From Candidatus Omnitrophota bacterium (GTDB lineage Bacteria; Omnitrophota; Gorgyraeia; Zapsychrales; JANLHA01): a stretch of DNA of 32,000 bases. Positions 14,049 to 28,192 of this stretch are shown here, in pieces; within the stretch, counting starts at the first letter, position 1, and each line of letters begins with the position of its first letter. Below the pieces are notes generated by a model. It had not been told where the DNA came from and ran no database searches. It worked only from the letters and a program-made list of their open reading frames with translations. Where the stretch lies: positions 1,620,001 through 1,652,000 of the forward strand of contig OY759724.1 in NCBI GenBank assembly GCA_963662715.1, in the 5' to 3' direction. Position numbers and translations under genes: made by a program.

Positions 14049-14534
14049 ATGGAATCAATCCAAGTTGCAGTCATGATGGGAAGTCAGTCCGACGCCCCGA
14101 CGATGCAGGAGACAGTCAAAATCCTTAAAGATTTTGGTGTCGGATGCGAGGTCAAGATTCTTTCAGCACACCGTACTCCGAAAGAAACGGCGGAATATGC
14201 CGAAGGCCTTCAAGCCCGCGGTATCCAGGTGGTTATTTGCGGTGCGGGAGGGTCCGCGGCTTTAGCCGGAGTTGTGGCCGCGCATACGTTGTTGCCCGTT
14301 ATAGGAATTCCGATAGAATCTGTATTGCAGGGGATGGATTCTTTACTGTCCACGGTTCAGATGCCTCCGGGCGTTCCGGTCGGCGGGGTTGCTATCGGTA
14401 AGCCGGGAGCGAAGAACGCGGCTTTGCTCGCATTGAGAATCTTGGCCTTACGGGACGGGTCCCTGGGGTCGAAGTTGCGGGAGTTCCAGGAGGCACAGAA
14501 ACAGAAAATTCTGCAACAAAAGGTGGATTTTTGA
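14049..14534 (+). CDS. purE: N5-CAIR mutase / AIR carboxylase catalytic subunit PurE
   Basis: VMMGSQSDAPTM, ILSAHRTP and VPVGGVAIG motifs; 161 aa. No purK is present in this window. Confidence 0.9.
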   Translation: MESIQVAVMMGSQSDAPTMQETVKILKDFGVGCEVKILSAHRTPKETAEYAEGLQARGIQVVICGAGGSAALAGVVAAHTLLPVIGIPIESVLQGMDSLLSTVQMPPGVPVGGVAIGKPGAKNAALLALRILALRDGSLGSKLREFQEAQKQKILQQKVDF

Positions 14535-15595
14535 AAACCGAAATAGTCCCGATTAATTCAGATTTCCCCGAACTGGATAAGATCGCTTATTGCGCAAAGG
14601 TCATCCGTCACGGGGGATTGGTGATTTTTCCCACGGAAACCGTCTATGGAATCGCGGCTGATTATAATAATCCCAAAGCGATGGGCCGGTTGCGGGACGT
14701 TAAAAAACGGGCGGAGAATAAGCCTTTCTCTATCCATATTGCTCAAAAAGGTCTTGTGTATAATTATACATCCATGACCGACCCGAGACTTTATAAATTG
14801 ATCGATCACTGTTGGCCCGGCCCTTTAACTGTCATTGTCCCTTCCCGGGAAGCGGATCAGACTATAGGTATTCGGATGCCGCAGAATAATATCGCCTTGA
14901 TGCTTGTGCAGGAATCTCAATGTACGGTTGCGGCTCCATCGGCCAATTTTTCCGGCCAGCCTCCCCCTTCGACCTGTCAGGAGGCCTTGCGTGATCTGGA
15001 CGGGTTGGTGGACGTGGCTATCGACGGAGGTTCAGCCCAACTTGGACTCGCCTCCTCGGTGGTTGATTTTACTCAGGGAGATCCGAAAATCCTGCGCGCA
15101 GGGGTCATTACCCAGGAAGAGGTGGATGCGATCACTCAAAAGAAATCCATTCTTTTTGTCTGTACCGGCAATAGCTGCCGGTCGGTGATGGCAGAATATT
15201 TATTGAGAGATTTTTTGCGTGGGCGCAATGATGTGGAGATATTTTCTGCGGGGACGGGGGTTTTCCTGCATTCCTCGGCCAGCAAAGAGACGCTGCATGT
15301 CCTTAGCCAGGAAGGGATCGATGCTTCTCTGCATGTGTCTCAGCCCGTAACGAATATTTTATTGAATAAGTCGGATTTGATCCTCGTCATGACGCGTTCT
15401 CACCGTCAGCAGATCCTGGAGCGTTTGCCGGTTGTGGAAAATCGCGTGTACTTGTTGCGGGAATTTCATGACGAGCCGCTGTCGACCCACTTGAACCTGG
15501 ATATCCCTGACCCGATTGGCAAGCCGGCTGAGGCCTATGAAGAATGTCTTATCATGATTAAGGAAGCTATACAGAAATTGGTTCATTTGATTTGA
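14531..15595 (+). CDS. Fusion: L-threonylcarbamoyladenylate synthase (TsaC/YrdC domain) + low-molecular-weight protein phosphatase (YwlE-like)
   Basis: The N-terminal half has the YrdC motifs (VIFPTETVYGIAAD, WPGPLTVIV, SANFSGQPP). The C-terminal half has the LMW-PTP P-loop FVCTGNSCRS (CX5R-S) and the IPDPIG acid loop. The TTG start overlaps the purE stop. Confidence 0.85.
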   Translation: MKTEIVPINSDFPELDKIAYCAKVIRHGGLVIFPTETVYGIAADYNNPKAMGRLRDVKKRAENKPFSIHIAQKGLVYNYTSMTDPRLYKLIDHCWPGPLTVIVPSREADQTIGIRMPQNNIALMLVQESQCTVAAPSANFSGQPPPSTCQEALRDLDGLVDVAIDGGSAQLGLASSVVDFTQGDPKILRAGVITQEEVDAITQKKSILFVCTGNSCRSVMAEYLLRDFLRGRNDVEIFSAGTGVFLHSSASKETLHVLSQEGIDASLHVSQPVTNILLNKSDLILVMTRSHRQQILERLPVVENRVYLLREFHDEPLSTHLNLDIPDPIGKPAEAYEECLIMIKEAIQKLVHLI

Positions 15596-19851: not shown

Positions 19852-19882
19852 TGTGCATTTTCACAAAAGGACAGGATCATTC

Positions 19883-20830
19883 ATGAAAATCAAAGATACC
19901 CAGTTAGATATTATTCAAGGGGATATTACGGATCTCAATATCGGTGCCGTCGTTAACCCTTGCGGGCCTGACAGGGCCTTGGCGTCTCCCTTGGCGGGTC
20001 TTGTCCTGAAAAAAGATCCTTGCCGGAGAGAGGGGGGGGCTGCCCCCTCCCAGGTTTTGCCTGCCGGGGCAGTGATGTGCTTTCAAAATCAAGGACCGCA
20101 AATCCGTTACATTATCCATGCCGTAAAGGTCGATGATGAGGGGAAGACCGGAGAAAGGGTGTTGCGGCAAGTTTGCCGCAACGTGTTTCGATGTGTCCGG
20201 GAATTGGACGTTGATTCCTTGGCCTTTCTTCCTCTTGTGGAAAATCCGGAAGAGTTCCCTGTCTTAGGTGCCGCTAAAATTATGGCCCAGGAAATTTTAA
20301 AAGCTGTGCGTTATGAAAGCACCCTATTGCGGAAAATCGTGATTTGTCTGCCTGAGGCTGCGCTTTATGATGTTTATGTGAAGGAACTGACGAGTTATAT
20401 GAATCATATCCTTTGTGATTTGGGGGCAGGCCCCTATGTGACCGTTGATATCATCATTGAAGTGCCGGAGGGCATTGTTGTCATAGAACGCTCCAATCCC
20501 CCTTATGGGTTGGCCTTGCCCGGAGGTTTTGTTGATCCGGGAGAGTCCCTTGAGCAGGCGGCATATCGTGAAGCTAAAGAGGAAACAGATTTGGACCTGG
20601 TTGATTTAAGGCAGTTTCATACTTATTCTGCTCCTCAGCGGGATCCGCGATTTCATACCGTCAGCACCGTTTTTGTAGCCCGGGGAGAAGGGGTCCCGCA
20701 TTTCGGGGACGATGCCAAAGGGCTGCGGGTCATCCCGAGAGAAGAAATCCTCAAGTGTGACTTTGCCTTTGATCATGGCATCATCCTTCGGGATTATTTG
20801 TCTGGAAGAAAACGGCAGAAAGGTTATTGA
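19883..20830 (+). CDS. Macro-like domain / Nudix hydrolase fusion protein
   Basis: The N-terminus is macro-like ([17 protein letters not shown]..., [14 protein letters not shown]). The C-terminus has a canonical Nudix box, [24 protein letters not shown]. The ATG at 19883 (AGGA 6 nt upstream) is preferred to the GTG at 19853. Confidence 0.8.
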
Positions 20831-20832
20831 TT

Positions 20833-20943
20833 ATGGGAGAACAAAGCGCCCCCGGATTATCGAATGCGGTAGGAGGGCTTATCACCGTTGCGATTGTCGT
20901 GATTTTGTATGTTCTGATCCGCATTCTTCAGAAGAAGACCTGA
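20833..20943 (+). CDS. Candidate 36-aa single-pass membrane peptide (not in the ORF track)
   Basis: The ATG lies 2 nt after the upstream stop. Translation is MGEQSAPGLSNAVGGLITVAIVVILYVLIRILQKKT, one clean TM helix with a basic C-terminus. A terminator hairpin follows directly. No conservation evidence is available. Confidence 0.35.
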   Translation: MGEQSAPGLSNAVGGLITVAIVVILYVLIRILQKKT

Positions 20944-20949
20944 CGGAAA

Positions 20950-20980
20950 ACAGTGAAGTTCTGCTTCACTGTCTTTCTGC
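20950..20980 (+). terminator. Rho-independent terminator candidate ending the long + strand gene string
   Basis: Perfect 9-bp stem ACAGTGAAG / CTTCACTGT with a 5-nt loop (20950-20972), followed by CTTTCT. A 400-nt non-coding gap lies downstream. Confidence 0.55.
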
Positions 20981-21185
20981 CGGTTCCTCCCTGGCCTCGT
21001 TTTTATTTTAAGGAAGGACACTGCTTTATCCTGCCAGAATATCCCGTGAAAATATTGAATAAAAACTAGCGTAAGGCCCACCTGAGGTTATAATTATTTT
21101 GAGTCGTTTATAGTGCTGGAGTTTATGTCTCATTTTTGTTTTGGCGGCAACTCCGCGGCAGAATGTCGCGCCCGTTTAGTGCGTG

Positions 21186-21221
21186 CCGGAGAAACGAGAA
21201 AGCGCTTTCTTGTTGCTCCGG
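21186..21221. repeat. 36-nt imperfect palindrome / strong hairpin in the leader of the surface-protein genes
   Basis: CCGGAGAAACGAGAAAGC|GCTTTCTTGTTGCTCCGG pairs at 15 of 16 stem positions (one G-U, one A/G mismatch) around a GCGC centre. A T-rich stretch (CATTCTTTTGG) begins 4 nt downstream. Confidence 0.7.
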
Positions 21222-21415
21222 GAGGCATTCTTTTGGAAAAAAGAGGGTATGGTTCCTTGCAGCTTTAAGTTTCTCGTCGATGCGTGTCAAGGAAGCGGGA
21301 AGAGAAGGCGTTTGAAAGATGGAATAAGGTAAGAAAAGTATTGTATACTTTTTATAGTAGGGCCTGACCACGATTTAATTATCGGGAACAAACTAACCGA
21401 GCAGGTAGGAGAATA

Positions 21416-22279
21416 ATGATGAAACACAAAAGAAAACTGTTTGCTGTTTTTGCGGGGGCCGTTTGTTGTCTGTTTCTTGCGGGCATGGTCTATGCCGGAA
21501 CATTAACTTTAACGACATATTATCCCGCTCCTTTTGGTTCTTATTCCCAGGTGCGATTAGTGCCGCGGGCCGCCATATCAGGAGCCTGTGATGTGGGGAG
21601 TATGTACGTTGATGAAACAAACGGGTTATTAATGTATTGCCGTGATGATTCGACCTATGGCCTGTTGCCGACAGCCTGGACGCAGGACAGCAATTCTGTT
21701 TTCTTAACAGATGTGGCCAATTACAGCACTTTAAAAGTCGGGATCGGGACCATAAACCCTGACAGCCAGCTGCAGATCGAATCCCAGGGAAGCGGCGCCA
21801 CGTTTAAAGTCGATCAGATGGGAGGGAGCGCTTTTACCGTAAACAGCCAGTTAAGCAACTCGGTGATAGGAACGGAGGGGAACACGTCCCTGGAATTGAA
21901 GACAAATGGCACGTCCCGCATATACATTACATCAGCAGGCAAGGTGGGTATCAATTCCGCCAGCCCGACGCATGATTTGGAAATTAACGGGGATGTGGAA
22001 ATTTCCGTTGAGGCCGGGGAGGACAGCCAGGTTACTTTTTCAAGGGGTACGACCTTTGTGACGATGGGGCTCGATGCCGCAGATAATTATTTTAAGATAA
22101 ATTACGGGTCCTCTTTGGGAGCCACGACAGAGCTGACATTGCTCCCGAGCGGTAAATTGCGCATTAACGGACCTATTGAAGTCAAACTCGGAAGTGATCC
22201 TGTTGGAGAAATAAAATTACGATATATTGATACGGGCGATCCCAACACATCGGGATATTATGCCATGTACGCCCCTTAA
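21416..22279 (+). CDS. Secreted tail-fibre-like protein, family unassigned
   Basis: AGGAG lies 5 nt upstream. Sec signal peptide (KLFAVFAGAVCCLFLAGMVYA|GT). The mature N-terminus is TLTLTTYYPAPFGSY, followed by a two-Cys loop CDVGSMYVDETNGLLMYC. There are two copies of the motif KVGIGTINPDSQLQI / KVGINSASPTHDLEI. The protein is Gly/Ser/Thr-rich and looks beta-rich. Confidence 0.8.
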   Translation: MMKHKRKLFAVFAGAVCCLFLAGMVYAGTLTLTTYYPAPFGSYSQVRLVPRAAISGACDVGSMYVDETNGLLMYCRDDSTYGLLPTAWTQDSNSVFLTDVANYSTLKVGIGTINPDSQLQIESQGSGATFKVDQMGGSAFTVNSQLSNSVIGTEGNTSLELKTNGTSRIYITSAGKVGINSASPTHDLEINGDVEISVEAGEDSQVTFSRGTTFVTMGLDAADNYFKINYGSSLGATTELTLLPSGKLRINGPIEVKLGSDPVGEIKLRYIDTGDPNTSGYYAMYAP

Positions 22280-22310: not shown

Positions 22311-25300
22311 ATGCTAAGTTACAGAAAGATTTGGCGTTTTTGCGCGATGGTTGTCTGTACGGTGTTTTTGGTCCTTCTGTCTGAATACGGCGCGTTTTCT
22401 CAAACTTGGACAGATGATGATCTGGCGACCGCCCAAAGACCGGTCAAGCCTATTCATATCCGGGAAATGCGGCGGGCTATTTATAACAAACGCATGCTCT
22501 GCGGGATGTCTTCTCCGACATGGCAGGAACCCAATATCATTGAAAAAGTGACGCCTATCCGGGCTCAGCATGTTGAAGAATTGCGGCAGGCGATCAGAGA
22601 TGTTTATGACATGCCGCCGTCCCGTACTCTCCCTGACGGTGTGATATTGGCGACGGATGTCCCGGAGGAATCAGCTATCAGGGCCGATCATATTTTTGAA
22701 ATAAGACTCTCTATCGAAGAGGTCAGTTGCTGCGGGGACGGGGAATGCAACCCGCCGTTTGAAGACCTGGATAACTGCCCGGTGGATTGCGGGGCCTGCA
22801 CCTATAGCGACTGGGTGATTTTGGGTTGTGGCGTGTCTCCTTGCGATGGCAATGAAATTCAGCGCAAAAAAACGGCTCCGGAAGACGGCTGTCAGGATCT
22901 GATCGAATGTATTGCGGCTTATGACACATGCTGCAACTACGGGGCGTGGGAAGATTATGACTGCGGCGGAGGCGAATGCGACCCGACAGCGATGAGGCAG
23001 ATTCAGCAATCAGCCACCAGTGTGGCGGGCTGCGAGGACCGTTACCGCTGCCTGGAGCTTGAATCCTGCTGTGATTATGCGGGTTTTGTCTGGCAGTGCG
23101 GCTATGATATCCTTTATCCGGATACACAATGGCTGGAGGTTAACATCCCTGATAATTCCGCGTGTGAGCCAGAGTTCGGGACGATTTATGAAGCGGATGA
23201 TCCCATATCAAAAGCAAACTGCTGCGATTACGGGGCGCAAAGCAGCAGCTGCGGCGGGGAAGTCGAAGGCGTGACCTATCCCGACTCCACCCTTATAACG
23301 CAACGCGCGGCGGGCAATCCCAATTGTGAAGATGATATCACCATCACTCCCAATGCCGATGATTGTTGTGACTACGGACCGATTGAGACGCCTCCCAGCT
23401 GTGGGGCGACATTAAGGGTGGATGGAGTCATGACGACGTTCCCTGACACGACGTTCCTGCAGTTCCGGACACCGACAAATCCTAACTGTGATCATAAAAT
23501 TGTCCAGGAACTCGCTATTGAAGAGGATCCGACAAAATACTGCTGTCAATACAGCGGTTTTCAGGGAGATTGCGGTTATGATCCCGTATACCCGGATACG
23601 GACTGGATCGAATATAATATCGCGGGAGTTGTCGACGTATCCTGTCCTGTGGAATACAGAAATCATCTGCCGAATGCCGACAGCTGCTGCTGTTACGAAT
23701 CGACCTCTATATGCGGAGACGGGGTCACCTACCCCACGTCCAGCATGATCACGTCGAAAACTCCGACGTGTAATCCTTCCTGCTCGACCGAGGTAACAGA
23801 GGATACTTTTAATGAAGCCTGTTGCGGTTACGGGCCTTGGCAGTATGATCAGTGCGGATATGCCGGATATTATGACGATACTTATCTGGTGGATTACCGT
23901 TCTCCGACCAATCCTCTGTGTGATCCTATCTTCGGTGATGTCTGCGGCCCGAATCATGAAGACTGTTGCGGTTACCCGGAAAAAGATGTTGTCTGCGGAG
24001 GAACCTGGGAAGGGGTGGTTTATCCGGAGACCACCTGTATTTATGATGCCGCTAAACCGGCCAACCCGAATTGCCCGGATAAATGCGGTTCTATTGAAGA
24101 GATGTGCGATTATTGCTGTGATTATGAAATTACGAGTTCCCACTGCGGGGACGGGGTGACGATCCCGGTCACCACTCAGGTTGTCACCAGGACGCCCAAT
24201 AACCCGAACTGTGACGTGATCGTGGACGAACAGATCCCGGATGGCTGTTGCGGTTATCCGGCAGGGTCGAGCCGGATTTGCGGATACGACGGGCGCCCGG
24301 CAACGACATCCGTTGAAGTCATGGAACCGACCCAGGACTTTGATGATTGCGAAACGATTATACAGAATGAAATAGAGAACGATCCGTTCTGTTGTGATTA
24401 TGCCGGGTTCCAGGCCTCGCAATGCGGGTATTCGGGGTGGTATGAGGCGCACACCCGGTTAGAGGTGAATGAGCCTAACAACGCCATAACAGGCTGTGAT
24501 CCTCTGTTTCAGAACGTTGTTCCCTATGAGTATGAGTGCTGTGAATACGGGACCGCAACGTCGACCTGCGGGGACGGGGTAAGTTATCCGACGAGTTCCT
24601 GGGTGACGACGCAAACATCCGCCGCGGGGTGCGATGCTATCGAGGGAGAGGAGACGAATCATCAAAACTGCTGCAATTATCCGGCCTCCCCGACCACGGA
24701 ATGCGGGGCCTTGGGATATCCCGAGACTTATTTGGTTTCGTACCTGGAATCATCAACGAATCCGACGTGTGAAATTCAGATTATCGGAACACCGGCTTAT
24801 GACGAAGTGTGTTGCCAGTACGGATCTTTGCAGCAGGGGTGCGGGGACGGGGTCCAGTTCCCGTTGACAGACTATGTCAGCTGGCATGAGCCGGGGCTCG
24901 TGCACGTTGATTGCCCGGTTAAAGTTATCAGCCAGATCGAAAATGACGACACGTGTTGTGGGTATCCGGCGGAGTATACAGCCGTTTGTGGATATTCAGC
25001 CTTAGGCTATCCGGAAACAACATTAGTGGAGATTAAAGAGCCGACGCTGGCGGAATGTCCGGTGAAATCACGGAATCCGGTCCCTTATGACGACACATGC
25101 TGTGAATATACGACAAATTATTATTGCGGGTATCCGTCTCCTTTGGACATCCCGGACACCAATTATGTTGAAGTGAAAGAACCGGGAGGAGGAAAAAGTT
25201 GCCCGGTAGAGGCTGTGAATGAAACAGCGTATGCTGAAATATGCTGCGGATACACGACCGGAACCGTTCAGGATTTGGGCTGCATGGCCTCATATGACGG

Positions 25301-26111
25301 TCTAACCTGTTCGTACGATCAACGATTGATTGTGACCACTCCGACGAACGCGAATTGTCCTGAAGAAAAAGAATGTAATTATGATGTGTCCTGTACAACA
25401 TGTACGACCGGAGACACCCTGGCCTGCGCTGACGTAAACGGCTGTCCCTACCAGCGTATCTGCGAAGACGGTTACTGGAGCAGCTGTCAGCAGGTTAATC
25501 CTCTTTGCACTCCGGGAGAGATTGTTGATTGTGAGCCCAATGCCGACGGGTTTATTTCCAAAAAGACCTGTAATGTCTGCGGGACAGCCTGGGGACCCTG
25601 CTGGTGTGACCCGCAGGAAACACAAAGCTGTACAACCTCCGCTTCCTGCCCCGGGATCGGCACATGTTCCGGAGGAGGCTGGTCTCCTTGCGAGCAAAGC
25701 AACCCGACATGTATTCCCGGCTCGACCCATGACTGTACTTTGGGCGACGGAAACCCGGGGGTCGAAGATTGTAATTCCTGCGGAGACGGCTTTGGTACGT
25801 GCCGCTGCTTGGCCGGCGCGGTTTATTGTTATATCGAAGGGGTTCTGGGAACCCAGACATGTAATACGACGACGGGGTTGTATGAGGATTGTGTCTGTAT
25901 CAGCGGATCAACCAAGCAATGTACCACGACTTCGGGATGTACGGCCGGGGTTATTTATTGTAACGACGGCACCGGGCTCTTTGACGGCGACTGTGAATTG
26001 CCGTATTCTGAATGTACTCCGGGAGAAACCAGGTCTTGTCTGAAATACTTTATCATCCCTGGGACGGAGACATGTATGTCCTGCGGGAACTGGAGTGGTG
26101 TGTGTGAGTAA
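22311..26111 (+). CDS. Giant secreted cysteine-rich repeat protein (1266 aa, about 126 Cys), no recognised family
   Basis: Uninterrupted 3.8-kb ORF beginning 31 nt after the previous gene. Signal peptide CAMVVCTVFLVLLSEYGAFS|QT. The architecture has three parts: a triplicated helical motif, about 17 four-Cys repeats, and a C-terminal Cys-knot-like module. Confidence 0.9.
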   Translation: MLSYRKIWRFCAMVVCTVFLVLLSEYGAFSQTWTDDDLATAQRPVKPIHIREMRRAIYNKRMLCGMSSPTWQEPNIIEKVTPIRAQHVEELRQAIRDVYDMPPSRTLPDGVILATDVPEESAIRADHIFEIRLSIEEVSCCGDGECNPPFEDLDNCPVDCGACTYSDWVILGCGVSPCDGNEIQRKKTAPEDGCQDLIECIAAYDTCCNYGAWEDYDCGGGECDPTAMRQIQQSATSVAGCEDRYRCLELESCCDYAGFVWQCGYDILYPDTQWLEVNIPDNSACEPEFGTIYEADDPISKANCCDYGAQSSSCGGEVEGVTYPDSTLITQRAAGNPNCEDDITITPNADDCCDYGPIETPPSCGATLRVDGVMTTFPDTTFLQFRTPTNPNCDHKIVQELAIEEDPTKYCCQYSGFQGDCGYDPVYPDTDWIEYNIAGVVDVSCPVEYRNHLPNADSCCCYESTSICGDGVTYPTSSMITSKTPTCNPSCSTEVTEDTFNEACCGYGPWQYDQCGYAGYYDDTYLVDYRSPTNPLCDPIFGDVCGPNHEDCCGYPEKDVVCGGTWEGVVYPETTCIYDAAKPANPNCPDKCGSIEEMCDYCCDYEITSSHCGDGVTIPVTTQVVTRTPNNPNCDVIVDEQIPDGCCGYPAGSSRICGYDGRPATTSVEVMEPTQDFDDCETIIQNEIENDPFCCDYAGFQASQCGYSGWYEAHTRLEVNEPNNAITGCDPLFQNVVPYEYECCEYGTATSTCGDGVSYPTSSWVTTQTSAAGCDAIEGEETNHQNCCNYPASPTTECGALGYPETYLVSYLESSTNPTCEIQIIGTPAYDEVCCQYGSLQQGCGDGVQFPLTDYVSWHEPGLVHVDCPVKVISQIENDDTCCGYPAEYTAVCGYSALGYPETTLVEIKEPTLAECPVKSRNPVPYDDTCCEYTTNYYCGYPSPLDIPDTNYVEVKEPGGGKSCPVEAVNETAYAEICCGYTTGTVQDLGCMASYDGLTCSYDQRLIVTTPTNANCPEEKECNYDVSCTTCTTGDTLACADVNGCPYQRICEDGYWSSCQQVNPLCTPGEIVDCEPNADGFISKKTCNVCGTAWGPCWCDPQETQSCTTSASCPGIGTCSGGGWSPCEQSNPTCIPGSTHDCTLGDGNPGVEDCNSCGDGFGTCRCLAGAVYCYIEGVLGTQTCNTTTGLYEDCVCISGSTKQCTTTSGCTAGVIYCNDGTGLFDGDCELPYSECTPGETRSCLKYFIIPGTETCMSCGNWSGVCE
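22929..25391 (+). repeat. Coding tandem repeat array, about 17 units of ~48 aa (~144 nt)
   Basis: CC dipeptides occur at residues 207, 253, 304, 352, 411, 459, 504, 552, 602, 646, 694, 743, 787, 834, 882, 930 and 978. Each is followed by x-Y, then CG 6-10 residues later, then usually a Y/F-P-D/E/T-T/S turn, then a fourth Cys (often NPxC). Confidence 0.85.
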
Positions 26112-26210: not shown

Positions 26211-26828
26211 GTGTCTCAAGAACCAGAATCCCAGCTAAATCAGATTTATTCGGATCCGGATGTTTTGCTTATGCTTGAGGTCCAGAAAGGCCACCAGGCC
26301 CCTTTTGAGAGCCTGATGCGTAAGTATTATAAACGGATTTATAATTTTATTTACCGTTTTGTCGGACATCGACAGCTGGCCGAAGATTTGACACAGGATG
26401 TTTTTATCCGTGTGTATAAATCGGCGGATTCTTACCATCCCAAAGCAAAATTTCAAACCTGGATTTATACTATTGCTAAGAATTTGAGTCTTAATGAATT
26501 AAGAAAAAAGAGCTCTCGAAACAGTATTTCTTTAGAACAAGAAATTCCGACTTCCCGTGGGGCCGTGCTGCCCCAGGTCGAAGACCCTCGTGCGAAGAGT
26601 CTCTGGGAATCCATGGCGCAGGAAGAAAAACAGTCTGTTGTCAGGGAGGCCATTCAGAGTCTTCCTGAGAATCAGAGGATGGCTGTTATTTTGCGGAGAT
26701 ACGAAGATCTTTCTTACGAACAGATTGCTCAGACACTCCAATGTTCCGTGCCTGCCGTTAAGTCTCTTTTGAATCGGGCTAAAGAAGGGCTGAAAGGGAA
26801 GCTCAGGAATGTTATGGGAGATTATTGA
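26211..26828 (+). CDS. ECF-type RNA polymerase sigma-70 factor
   Basis: Region 2 (AEDLTQDVFIRVY, FQTWIYTIAKNLSLN) and region 4 (LPENQRMAVILRRYEDLSYEQIAQTLQCSVPAVKSLLNRA). GTG start with AGGTGGA upstream. Confidence 0.88.
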   Translation: MSQEPESQLNQIYSDPDVLLMLEVQKGHQAPFESLMRKYYKRIYNFIYRFVGHRQLAEDLTQDVFIRVYKSADSYHPKAKFQTWIYTIAKNLSLNELRKKSSRNSISLEQEIPTSRGAVLPQVEDPRAKSLWESMAQEEKQSVVREAIQSLPENQRMAVILRRYEDLSYEQIAQTLQCSVPAVKSLLNRAKEGLKGKLRNVMGDY

Positions 26829-26894
26829 CGCGAGACAAATAAATCGCAACTTTTCCGCTTTTTTTGTGTTAAATATATAGAAGAGGATTTTATT

Positions 26895-27383
26895 ATGAAA
26901 TGTCATGAAATCAAAGAACTTCTCCCGGCCTACAGCAATTCTGATGTCTCTCCAGAAAAAGCTATGGAAATAGGAGAGCATTTAAAGGTCTGCGAGGATT
27001 GCCTGCAGGAATATAATCTTATTGTTAAGAGCTGGGAGTCTTTGGACGTCTGGCCGGATATTGAGCCGGAAGAAGGATATGTTTCAAGGTTCTGGACGCG
27101 TTTGTCTGCAGAACAGACCTGGAGAGAACGGGTTATGAGCGGAATGAAGAACCTGCTTGCAAAAAGAGCTCTTGTCCCGGCCTATGCCGGAACGCTCGTT
27201 GCGGTCCTTGTTGCTTTCTTGTATTTTCAGGTCCCTTTATCAAAAAACCGGCCTCCTGAAATGATCATTGAAGAGGATGTCGATTTTGTTGAATCTCTGG
27301 AATTGACAGAGCAAATGGATATATTGCAGGAGATGGATTGGTTAGAGGATTTGGATGTTATCGAAAAACTTGATGCTGTTTAA
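26895..27383 (+). CDS. Anti-sigma factor, zf-HC2 type, single-pass membrane protein
   Basis: N-terminal H-x3-C-x2-C (HLKVCEDC) after MKCHEIKELL, one TM helix (LVPAYAGTLVAVLVAFLYF), and a short, very acidic exported tail. Confidence 0.8.
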   Translation: MKCHEIKELLPAYSNSDVSPEKAMEIGEHLKVCEDCLQEYNLIVKSWESLDVWPDIEPEEGYVSRFWTRLSAEQTWRERVMSGMKNLLAKRALVPAYAGTLVAVLVAFLYFQVPLSKNRPPEMIIEEDVDFVESLELTEQMDILQEMDWLEDLDVIEKLDAV

Positions 27384-27663
27384 TCAGCAAAACAATTTTG
27401 TGCTAAAAGGAAGGGCTATTTTTGTGCTGAGCCTCTGTGCTTTTATCTTTATGGGGGGCCGGAATGGAGATTGCGGGAAAGAACAACAGAAGGATTCTTT
27501 GAAAAAGAAAACACAAGATGAGTCTGTTGTCGAATATATGGATATTTTAGATATATTGGAAATTCTGGATGAGCGGGACATTGATTTCTTTCAGGATGAT
27601 TTTTTTAGTTATCAGGAATTCGAGGGAGAGAAGGATGGAAAGGACAAAACAAAAAAGAAGTAG
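27373..27663 (+). CDS. Small exported acidic protein (96 aa), hypothetical
   Basis: The ATG overlaps the anti-sigma stop (ATGCTGTTTAA). It has a hydrophobic N-terminus (AIFVLSLCAFIFMGG) and an acidic core, EYMDILDILEILDERDIDFFQDDFF. The 3' end overlaps the next gene by 29 nt. Confidence 0.5.
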   Translation: MLFNQQNNFVLKGRAIFVLSLCAFIFMGGRNGDCGKEQQKDSLKKKTQDESVVEYMDILDILEILDERDIDFFQDDFFSYQEFEGEKDGKDKTKKK

Positions 27664-28192
27664 GTGTTTTTCGTGTGTTTTGTTTGTAATTCTGATTTGT
27701 TTTATCGGGCGTCCGGCGGCTGCTCAAACAACCGGGCAGGCCCGTGAAATCCGTGACGAAAAACGGTTGTCGGAAAAATTCGAAAGGTGGCAACAGCTCA
27801 GCGAAAAAGAGAAAGCCCTGTTGCGCCGGCGTTTTGAAAAATGGCAGGCGATGTCCCCTGCGCGGAAAGCAAGAATTCAGGAAAGGTTTAAACGGTTTAA
27901 ATCCCTGCCTATAGAGAAACAGCAGGAGCTTCGGAAGAACTGGCGGCGCTTTATGAACATGACCGAGGGGCAGAAAAGAGAAATCAATGCGCGTTATGCC
28001 CGATGGAAGAAAATGACTCCGGAAGAACGCAGAAGACTAAGAAACCGGTTTTACCGGTTTATGCAGATGTCCCCGGAGGAACGCAGGCAGCTGCAGCAAA
28101 AAAGAGAGCGGTGGCAGTCTCTTTCTCCGGAAGAACGGCAGAGAATACGTCAAAGAATACTTGAAAAAAGAAGACAGGCCCAGGAAATGTAA
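27635..28192 (+). CDS. DUF3106-like exported basic repeat protein
   Basis: The ATG at 27635 follows GGGAGAGAAGG. Signal peptide CFSCVLFVILICFIGRPAAA|Q. There are seven consecutive 18-aa repeats of the type F-x-R-W-x-x-M-S-P-E-E-R-x-x-L-R-x-R. The DUF3106 naming is from memory of the family's (R/K)(W/F)xxLxPEER pattern. Confidence 0.7.
   Translation: MERTKQKRSRCFSCVLFVILICFIGRPAAAQTTGQAREIRDEKRLSEKFERWQQLSEKEKALLRRRFEKWQAMSPARKARIQERFKRFKSLPIEKQQELRKNWRRFMNMTEGQKREINARYARWKKMTPEERRRLRNRFYRFMQMSPEERRQLQQKRERWQSLSPEERQRIRQRILEKRRQAQEM

Follow-up and report, generated by a model that had tools for sequence, protein, structure and literature searches.

The locus and the array protein

The stretch of DNA analysed here, 32,000 nucleotides of a Candidatus Omnitrophota genome (contig OY759724.1) and referred to below as the window, carries a gene for a cysteine-rich repeat protein. 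This array gene (22311..26111, plus strand) encodes 1266 amino acids (aa), of which 126 (9.95%) are cysteine (Cys) by a script count, and directly upstream of it lies a second gene, the partner gene, for a smaller exported protein. As argued below, the two products may together form a fibre of the cell envelope or surface. Relatives of the window locus are denoted by L numbers, and their proteins by P numbers or by the locus number followed by p.

The order of parts is common to all members of the family and consists of a signal peptide, an N-terminal module, a head of the form CCGDGxC...NCPxDC, the unit array and a Cys-rich tail (Table 1). A hydrophobic N-terminus followed by the mature start [QE]-W-[TS]-D is kept in all homologues. 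The model of residues 32-252 generated by AlphaFold2 (AF2) from a 12-row alignment, with a predicted local distance difference test score (pLDDT) of 83.5, shows three helices in the N-terminal module (47-63, 85-100 and 125-137), then a coil knot and two three-stranded units. Because of Cys parity, the only Cys of the module, C64, probably pairs with C140. The tail is composed of three alternating modules, which we read as 'C..CPG..C..G.WS.C.Q' and 'C.PG....C...C..CG..W..C.C', and it has no Pfam match at E <= 10. The window protein as a whole (22311-26108) is extremely acidic, with a net charge of -139, and most family members have an isoelectric point (pI) of about 4.05; the short member from L012 (L012p) is basic with a pI of 8.45, so acidity is no constant of the family.

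Table 1. Positions in the window of the partner gene and of the parts of the array gene
Feature	Position	Strand	Residues	Description
Partner gene	21416..22279	+		287-aa Sec-exported, tail-fibre-like protein directly upstream of the array gene
Predicted Sec signal peptide	22311..22400	+	1-30	Cleavage after AFS; read from sequence alone
N-terminal module	22401..22727	+	31-139	Three 'PIRAxHxxELRxAI' helices and a single invariant Cys (C64)
Head knot CCGDGECNPPFEDLDNCPVDCGA	22728..22796	+	140-162	Motif invariant across the family; coil in the AF2 model
Unit 0	22797..22931	+	163-207	Predicted three-stranded 6-Cys domain without an opening CC
Units 1-17	22932..25394	+	208-1028	Domains of 44-59 aa in tandem, with 4 Cys each (6 in some), that abut at CC
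C-terminal Cys-rich tail	25395..26111	+	1029-1266 plus stop	Conserved across the family

Along the array, CC dipeptides recur at residues 207, 253, 304, 352, 411, 459/460, 504, 552, 602, 646, 694, 743, 787, 834, 882, 930 and 978 with a spacing of 44-59 aa; an additional CC is found at residues 140-141 and a CCC at 459-461. The Cys count, the CC positions and their spacing had been given in an earlier note on this DNA and were all reproduced by script, as was the lack of CXXCH haem motifs, of which there are 0 in 1266 aa, so that the protein does not have the hallmark of a multihaem c-type cytochrome.

A profile of the repeated unit scores 522.6 bits on the array protein over 18 stretches, and the unit hidden Markov model (HMM) places 18 domains between residues 163 and 1028, each with an independent E-value (i-E) of 1e-7 to 3e-17. 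The repeat is genuine and far beyond chance. Since no DNA-level tandem repeat is detected in the array gene by Tandem Repeats Finder (TRF) at a score of at least 30, the array must be old and diverged, in agreement with what the earlier note had concluded from the divergence of the units. That note had counted about 17 units between 22929 and 25391, corresponding to residues 207-1027. The tandem array it described is real, but the number of domains by HMM is 18, as a unit without CC (unit 0) precedes those counted. Unit 0 is recognised by the HMM at residues 163-208 (i-E 1.2e-7), and AF2 predicts strands at 169-173, 182-187 and 197-202, which means that the second half of the apparent head is itself a unit. 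Full-length members of the family contain 17-20 domains by HMM.

A domain family new to the databases

The whole array protein has no match in Pfam or NCBIfam at E <= 10, and the same holds for six of its sub-regions in Pfam; PHROGs contain nothing relevant to it at E <= 1, and searches of all PDB sequences with the single sequence, the unit profile and a full-length profile yielded no match. Relatives are rare. Besides the array protein itself there are five among 5.8 billion protein clusters, and an exhaustive hmmsearch of 1.84 billion representative proteins with an 82-unit profile gave 16 matches at E <= 1e-3, about 11 of them genuine and the remaining ones unrelated repeat proteins. Scanning of 185,579 species genomes with the CCGDGxC head motif as a seed detected 8 loci, all of them in Omnitrophota metagenome-assembled genomes (MAGs), one of which is labelled Planctomycetales. 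No literature on this domain family was found. The databases have no entry for this family, whose members come almost exclusively from Omnitrophota, but it belongs to a familiar class, that of tandem beta repeats which are extracellular and stapled by disulfides. With 76-77% identity to its orthologues the array protein is at least as conserved as the products of the neighbouring housekeeping genes (53-78%), and the domain number of 17-20 is kept between proteins which are only 25-35% identical. What emerges is an undescribed, phylum-restricted domain family with a clear sequence signature and a confidently predicted fold.

Some relatives depart from the common pattern. Three matches of the unit profile (P0014, P0015 and P0018), probably from Bacteroidota, contain two-Cys repeats of roughly 45-50 aa ('C..xF.G.TY..S....D.....GGCDS') that align to profile positions 7-42 with E 1e-4 to 1e-6, and two of these proteins have a tail typical of gliding or type IX secretion system (T9SS) proteins; their likeness to the units may reflect a common beta-hairpin motif or chance. 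In L006 (7102-15458) the array gene is tandemly duplicated, with a short copy (P0005, 727 aa, 7 units) that is preceded by an unrelated 260-aa gene and followed by a full pair of partner (303 aa) and array protein (1342 aa, 20 units, all 6-Cys).

A Candidatus Zapsychrus exili MAG (L015, 3785-11332) contains four tandem paralogues of 474-627 aa with 35-59 Cys. Like the array protein these are secreted, Cys-rich and modular and carry the N-terminal three-helix module and the CCGDGxC head. Different from the array protein, however, they contain an FN3-like segment (weak fn3 match, E 0.0047) and 'YCGDG..GEECD' Cys repeats in place of the CC array, and they are not accompanied by a partner gene. 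The presence of the N-terminal module in these paralogues marks it as a wider Omnitrophota secreted-protein module, its breadth being known from L015 only. The myxobacterial Cys-rich repeat (TIGR02232 / DUF4215) was considered for these proteins and rejected, as neither the window protein nor the L015 paralogues match it in NCBIfam or Pfam.

Cysteine connectivity and domain borders

The four Cys columns that the earlier note had described are kept in the homologues, and in a set of 139 units from 13 proteins they are invariant without exception (139/139). The number of Cys is even in 132 of these units, 85 of which have the core four only. Additional Cys tend to come in pairs. In columns 20 and 42 both Cys are present in 55 cases, one of them alone in 0 and 2, and neither in 134 (Fisher 4e-46), and for a second optional pair in columns 15 and 28 the corresponding counts are 31/5/9/117 (Fisher 4e-20), p-values that overstate the evidence since the domains are not independent. 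Where the pair in columns 20/42 is missing, the two positions are occupied by Tyr and Val/Ile. Judged from these substitutions, a covalent bond appears to be exchanged for a hydrophobic contact, which is the behaviour of a disulfide and not of a metal site. The geometry of the pair in columns 15/28 could not be reconciled with a simple up-down-up sheet. At the level of the mature protein the Cys count is even in 11 of 15 family members, and in each of these the lone Cys of the N-terminal module evens out an odd number of Cys in the part that begins with the head.

How the core Cys are connected is indicated by the cases in which they were lost. In the lineage of P0006, P0010 and L013p two units are devoid of the 'GCG' Cys (GWG and GYA instead), and in exactly those cases the following CC has changed to YC. 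Of 167 consecutive junctions, 163 have both the 'GCG' Cys and the Cys with which the next unit begins, 4 have neither, and none is discordant. This joint loss implies that the third Cys of one unit would pair with the leading Cys of the CC at the start of the following one, which by elimination would leave the second Cys of CC to pair with the fourth ('C-P/D') Cys. Each CC would most likely be a zero-residue junction, the structural domain opening with its second C and closing with the first C of the CC that follows. This arrangement would also explain the pairing of C64 with C140, the extent of unit 0 from C163 to C207 and the lone C1028, which would close the array. Thus, the unit borders of the earlier note delimit a true tandem repeat but need to be shifted by one residue, and the eye-catching CC dipeptide is reinterpreted as a zero-linker junction between domains. 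As a point of method, both the disulfide connectivity and the true domain borders seem readable from paired Cys loss alone.

Four successive units of the window protein (residues 459-601, window 23688-24113), which include the CCC at 459-461, have odd numbers of Cys (5, 5, 5 and 7). This suggests extra inter-unit disulfides. In the 76% orthologue P0002 one Cys of this region is lost, resulting in an odd total.

Predicted fold and similarity to thrombospondin type 1 repeats

For four ordinary units (residues 787-977) AF2 produced a model with a pLDDT of 93.4 and a predicted template modelling score (pTM) of 0.68, using a 20-row in-register alignment assembled from non-overlapping four-unit windows. 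Each unit is predicted to consist of three strands and a short helical turn at D-x-C-C. Foldseek revealed nothing meaningful for this model (best PDB match E 0.018 with a template modelling score (TM) of 0.13, best BFVD match E 0.033), the matches being beta-propeller and tail-protein structures with TM <= 0.27. When the N-terminal model with its two 6-Cys units was used instead, 10 of the 19 top PDB matches were thrombospondin type 1 repeats (TSRs) or TSR-like structures, from complement C6/C5b6, midkine, TSP-1, properdin and semaphorin-5A, with E 0.14-1.5 and none of them significant.

The 6-Cys units, once re-registered, follow the pattern C-x9-C-x4-C-x15-17-C-x5-C-x6-C, in which the first strand carries Y/W. 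From 26 such units of the unit-0/1 subtype, with unit 0 as first sequence, a profile (A7) was built that has a single match below E = 1 among 177,635 PDB sequences, and this is TSR1 of F-spondin (1SZL; E 0.0072, domain i-E 0.026). Four Cys and the Y/W aromatic positions are matched in the alignment, and 1SZL is a genuine TSR that is related to 1VEX, properdin, TSP-1, BAI1, TRAP and MIC2. The score of 22 bits compares with a maximum of 14.5 bits in 2000 shuffles that preserved the Cys positions. In hhalign, A7 reaches 27.7% in the correct register with PDB-derived TSR fragments, as opposed to 0.1-0.9% with EGF and other controls, and 95% and 99% with the ordinary 4-Cys units and with all 6-Cys units, respectively. 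All 6-Cys units together, when aligned with a separate set of TSR sequences, reach 0.3%, which is no better than EGF.

Group-2 TSRs, to which F-spondin, midkine, the N-terminal complement TSRs and TRAP belong, have as their defining feature a disulfide that joins strand C to the start of strand A (Tan et al. 2002, PMC2173040). TSRs in general are regarded as adhesion domains of animals or apicomplexans (PMC3417536). The array units, as predicted, share with group-2 TSRs the small size of an extracellular domain of about 45-55 aa, three antiparallel strands, 2-3 disulfides and the aromatic residues of strand A, and the disulfide that defines the group (PMC2173040) would correspond to the C2-C4 link proposed here. 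Moreover, TSRs likewise occur as tandem arrays in adhesion proteins, and the 6-Cys array units resemble them in Cys spacing. On the other hand, most array units have four Cys and neither the layered Trp/Arg core nor the CSxTCG motif, the domains abut at CC with no linker, the host is a bacterium of the Omnitrophota, and the similarity is statistically borderline. The unit consensus has C-x-Y-x(2-3)-[WFY] on strand A and T-x-x-V-E-V rather than RxR on strand B, so the stacked WxxW/RxR layers are not seen, and basic residues on strand B are confined to units 0 and 1, the most TSR-like units of the array. The group-2 (F-spondin type) TSR is, on a weak match, the nearest known fold, and a TSR-like fold of the units is plausible at about even odds. 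The earlier statement that the units are of no recognised family holds insofar as no match at standard thresholds exists, but it has to be qualified by this weak but convergent link of the re-registered 6-Cys units to group-2 TSRs.

The partner gene

The partner protein is characterised by the motifs TTYYPAP[FY]G.Y (TTYYPAPFGSY in the window), VGIGTxxPxxxLxV and, at its C-terminus, GYYA[TM]YAP (GYYAMYAP in the window). Its gene is located directly upstream of the array gene in the window, in L001-L004, in the second pair of L006 and in L007-L014; in L005 an end-cut fragment of it occupies this place. It adjoins the array gene in 12 loci, which come from distant genomes and otherwise differ in context. 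Pfam and NCBIfam give no match for the partner protein. It does match the PHROG tail-fibre families 9942 and 18345 with E 2.9e-10 and 2.5e-8, respectively, the former match being limited to partner residues 95-220, and distant relatives of it carry the tail-fibre chaperone domain PF13884. What it has in common with phage tail-fibre proteins of these families is the repeated segment of the 'VGIGTxxPxxxLxV' type; it differs from them in that the match covers about 125 residues and in that the partner has no S74 chaperone domain, no phage context and no viral relatives.

Proposed architecture and alternative explanations

Taken together, we suggest, with a probability of roughly 0.55, that the array protein, as a rod of 18 disulfide-stapled domains, forms the rigid extracellular stalk in a fibre of two proteins at the cell envelope or surface. 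It would be a Sec-exported structural protein whose core, residues 163-1028, is a rod of small three-stranded beta domains. Two disulfides would hold each domain, one of them between the Cys at which strands A and C start (the second of CC and that of 'C-P/D', respectively), the other between the 'GCG' Cys, where strand A ends, and the closing Cys, and in some domains a third disulfide would take the place of the Tyr/Val-Ile contact. With zero-length linkers and cross-bracing at both ends of every domain a stiff array is to be expected, and its length would, as a rough estimate, be tens of nanometres. The three-helix module, probably closed by C64-C140, would form one end of the rod and the Cys-knot tail the other, and one of the two ends would bind the partner. 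Together with this tail-fibre-like protein the rod could constitute a cell-envelope or surface fibre, that is a stalk plus a fibre, which serves attachment or spacing in Omnitrophota. What the analysis shows directly is the repeat and how well it is conserved, the pairwise behaviour of its Cys, a three-strand fold as predicted and the pairing of the two genes. From these we infer rigidity, surface location and an adhesive or spacer function, as well as the TSR relationship and the exact disulfide map, the last from the pattern of Cys substitutions.

Long stalks of this kind are known from giant bacterial adhesins such as the RTX adhesins and SiiE, which consist of Ig-like or cadherin-like repeats of about 90-110 aa that are rigidified by Ca2+ and belong to recognised Pfam families. 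As in these stalks, a long tandem array of small beta domains would serve as a stiff spacer which carries a binding module away from the cell. Different from them, where Ca2+ is bound at the junctions, the stiffness of the array protein would come from disulfides and zero-length linkers. Cell-cell adhesion in Omnitrophota has been proposed to involve large proteins of the cell surface (PMC10066038), a proposal which fits an adhesive role of the array protein and is no proof of it. The phylum is uncultured and suspected of attaching to other cells, and the conserved stalk-plus-fibre gene pair provides a concrete candidate for such a function.

Several findings weigh against this picture. Mature-protein Cys counts are odd in 4 of the 15 proteins, no Dsb gene was found within the window, and the habitat of some relatives is likely anoxic, with a sludge-digester bin named in the title of L008. 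The array protein carries no recognisable signal for export across the outer membrane, nor an anchor or a sortase-type motif. It is covariation that underlies the disulfide map, and the joint loss of Cys was seen as just two independent double losses, both within a single lineage. As to the TSR relationship, TSR structures are absent from the top 50 PDB Foldseek matches of the four-unit model and all TSR matches in Foldseek have E-values of at least 0.14, Pfam TSP_1 (PF00090) gives no match at E <= 10 for the whole protein, its sub-regions or 26 single 6-Cys units, a TSR profile does not detect the family in the reverse search, and the ordinary 4-Cys units are without the W/R layers of TSRs.

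The earlier note had set a rigid stalk with two disulfides per unit against a periodic array in which each unit is a Cys4 metal-binding or iron-sulfur site and the protein carries metal or electrons. Such sites would account for four invariant Cys per unit in a protein with about 10% Cys overall, they would suit relatives that are probably anoxic, where disulfides are less expected, and they could be thought to agree with the mostly very acidic character of the family (pI about 4). However, the acidity is not universal, as seen with L012p (pI 8.45), and the unit consensus contains neither CxxC nor a conserved His, its invariant Cys being CC, the single C in GCG and the single C-P/D. Neighbouring CC residues would be poor co-ligands for one site, and a metal site would not readily explain why extra Cys are gained and lost in pairs in exchange with a Tyr/Val-Ile contact, why two units have survived the loss of exactly one 'GCG' and one boundary Cys, or why AF2 folds the units confidently without a cofactor. 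In addition, the protein has a Sec signal, and in L001-L004 (the P0003/P0004 lineage) a gene of the DsbA family lies about 3 kb from the array gene, which implies that oxidative-folding machinery exists in this lineage. Judged from the sequences we therefore regard disulfides as much more likely than metal sites and the metal array as very improbable, while the invariant Cys columns, the even counts, the paired gain and loss and the confident three-strand model speak for the stalk. The DsbA/thioredoxin-family gene itself (14731-15597 in L001, 11097-11960 in L004) is on the strand opposite to the array gene, and its position may be a coincidence.

Where such a rod would be located is a separate matter. 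That only a Sec signal is recognisable, with no signal for secretion across or anchoring in the outer membrane, would be compatible with a periplasmic protein that acts as a redox or thiol buffer or as an envelope scaffold instead of forming a surface fibre. But a redox buffer would need no invariant domain geometry, and neither role would readily explain the conserved 18-domain length, the rod-like architecture and the fibre-like partner, so we consider a periplasmic role improbable. Even less credible is the derivation of the two-gene cassette from a phage, as a receptor-binding module of a prophage or tailocin. The tail-fibre matches of the partner, PF13884 in its distant relatives and the different genomic contexts of the cassette in distant genomes could be taken to point in this direction. 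Yet 2.9 million viral contigs contain no relative of either gene, a structural match in BFVD is missing, and no phage genes are present in any flank, where housekeeping genes are found in stable synteny among close relatives; for want of viral relatives of either cassette gene a phage origin was rejected.

The units might, finally, be true and very divergent homologues of eukaryotic group-2 TSRs, through ancient shared origin or horizontal transfer. The bona fide TSR of F-spondin as the only PDB match of A7 below E = 1, the hhalign value in the correct register, the enrichment of TSR structures in the Foldseek list of the N-terminal model and the parallels in 6-Cys spacing and in the proposed A-start-to-C-start disulfide argue for this. 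It is opposed by the silence of both TSP_1 and the reverse TSR profile, by scores of <= 7 bits for the TSRs of TRAP and TSP-1, by the lack of a WxxW/RxR layered core in most units and by the covariation, which implies nested pairing at the end of the 'GCG' and closing Cys and not the crossed pairing of TSRs. Moreover, small disulfide-rich three-strand folds can converge. We consider such homology doubtful, though distinctly less remote than a periplasmic or phage-derived protein. The stalk proposed above may, as a more far-reaching and tentative version, be built of a native, highly diverged TSR-like domain which in 17-20 zero-linker copies supports a two-protein attachment fibre of Omnitrophota. 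If true, this would represent either a bacterial root of the TSR fold or a striking convergence, and a previously unseen surface organelle in a phylum suspected to be host-dependent or predatory (PMC10066038); should the TSR relationship hold, it would bear on the origin of a major eukaryotic adhesion domain.

Genomic surroundings

The window is ordinary chromosome, with genes for a murein ligase, MnmE, purine synthesis, SHMT, NrdR, a CCA-adding enzyme and a NUDIX-macro protein. Downstream of the array gene lies a block of about 2 kb (26211-28192), composed of an extracytoplasmic function (ECF) sigma factor (26211-26828), a zf-HC2 anti-sigma factor (26895-27383), a small open reading frame (ORF, 27355-27663) and a DUF3106 protein (27569-28192). 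We considered the sigma, anti-sigma and DUF3106 genes as a dedicated regulator of the cassette and rejected this, since the block is missing from four otherwise syntenic loci (L005, L008-L010) with 76-77% orthologues, in which GntR directly follows the array gene. The block is therefore a lineage-specific insertion and not a partner.

The non-coding gap that precedes the partner gene (20831-21415) is unusually long, with about 585 nucleotides. It contains a terminator-like hairpin at 20979-20995, has no Rfam match and could hold the promoter or leader of the cassette. The ORF before this gap (19853-20830) carries a NUDIX domain along with a Macro match that is weak (E 0.0014) and falls below the cut-off of Pfam. 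Another single ORF of 354 aa (14531-15595) fuses a Sua5/YciO/YrdC domain to a low-molecular-weight phosphotyrosine phosphatase domain.

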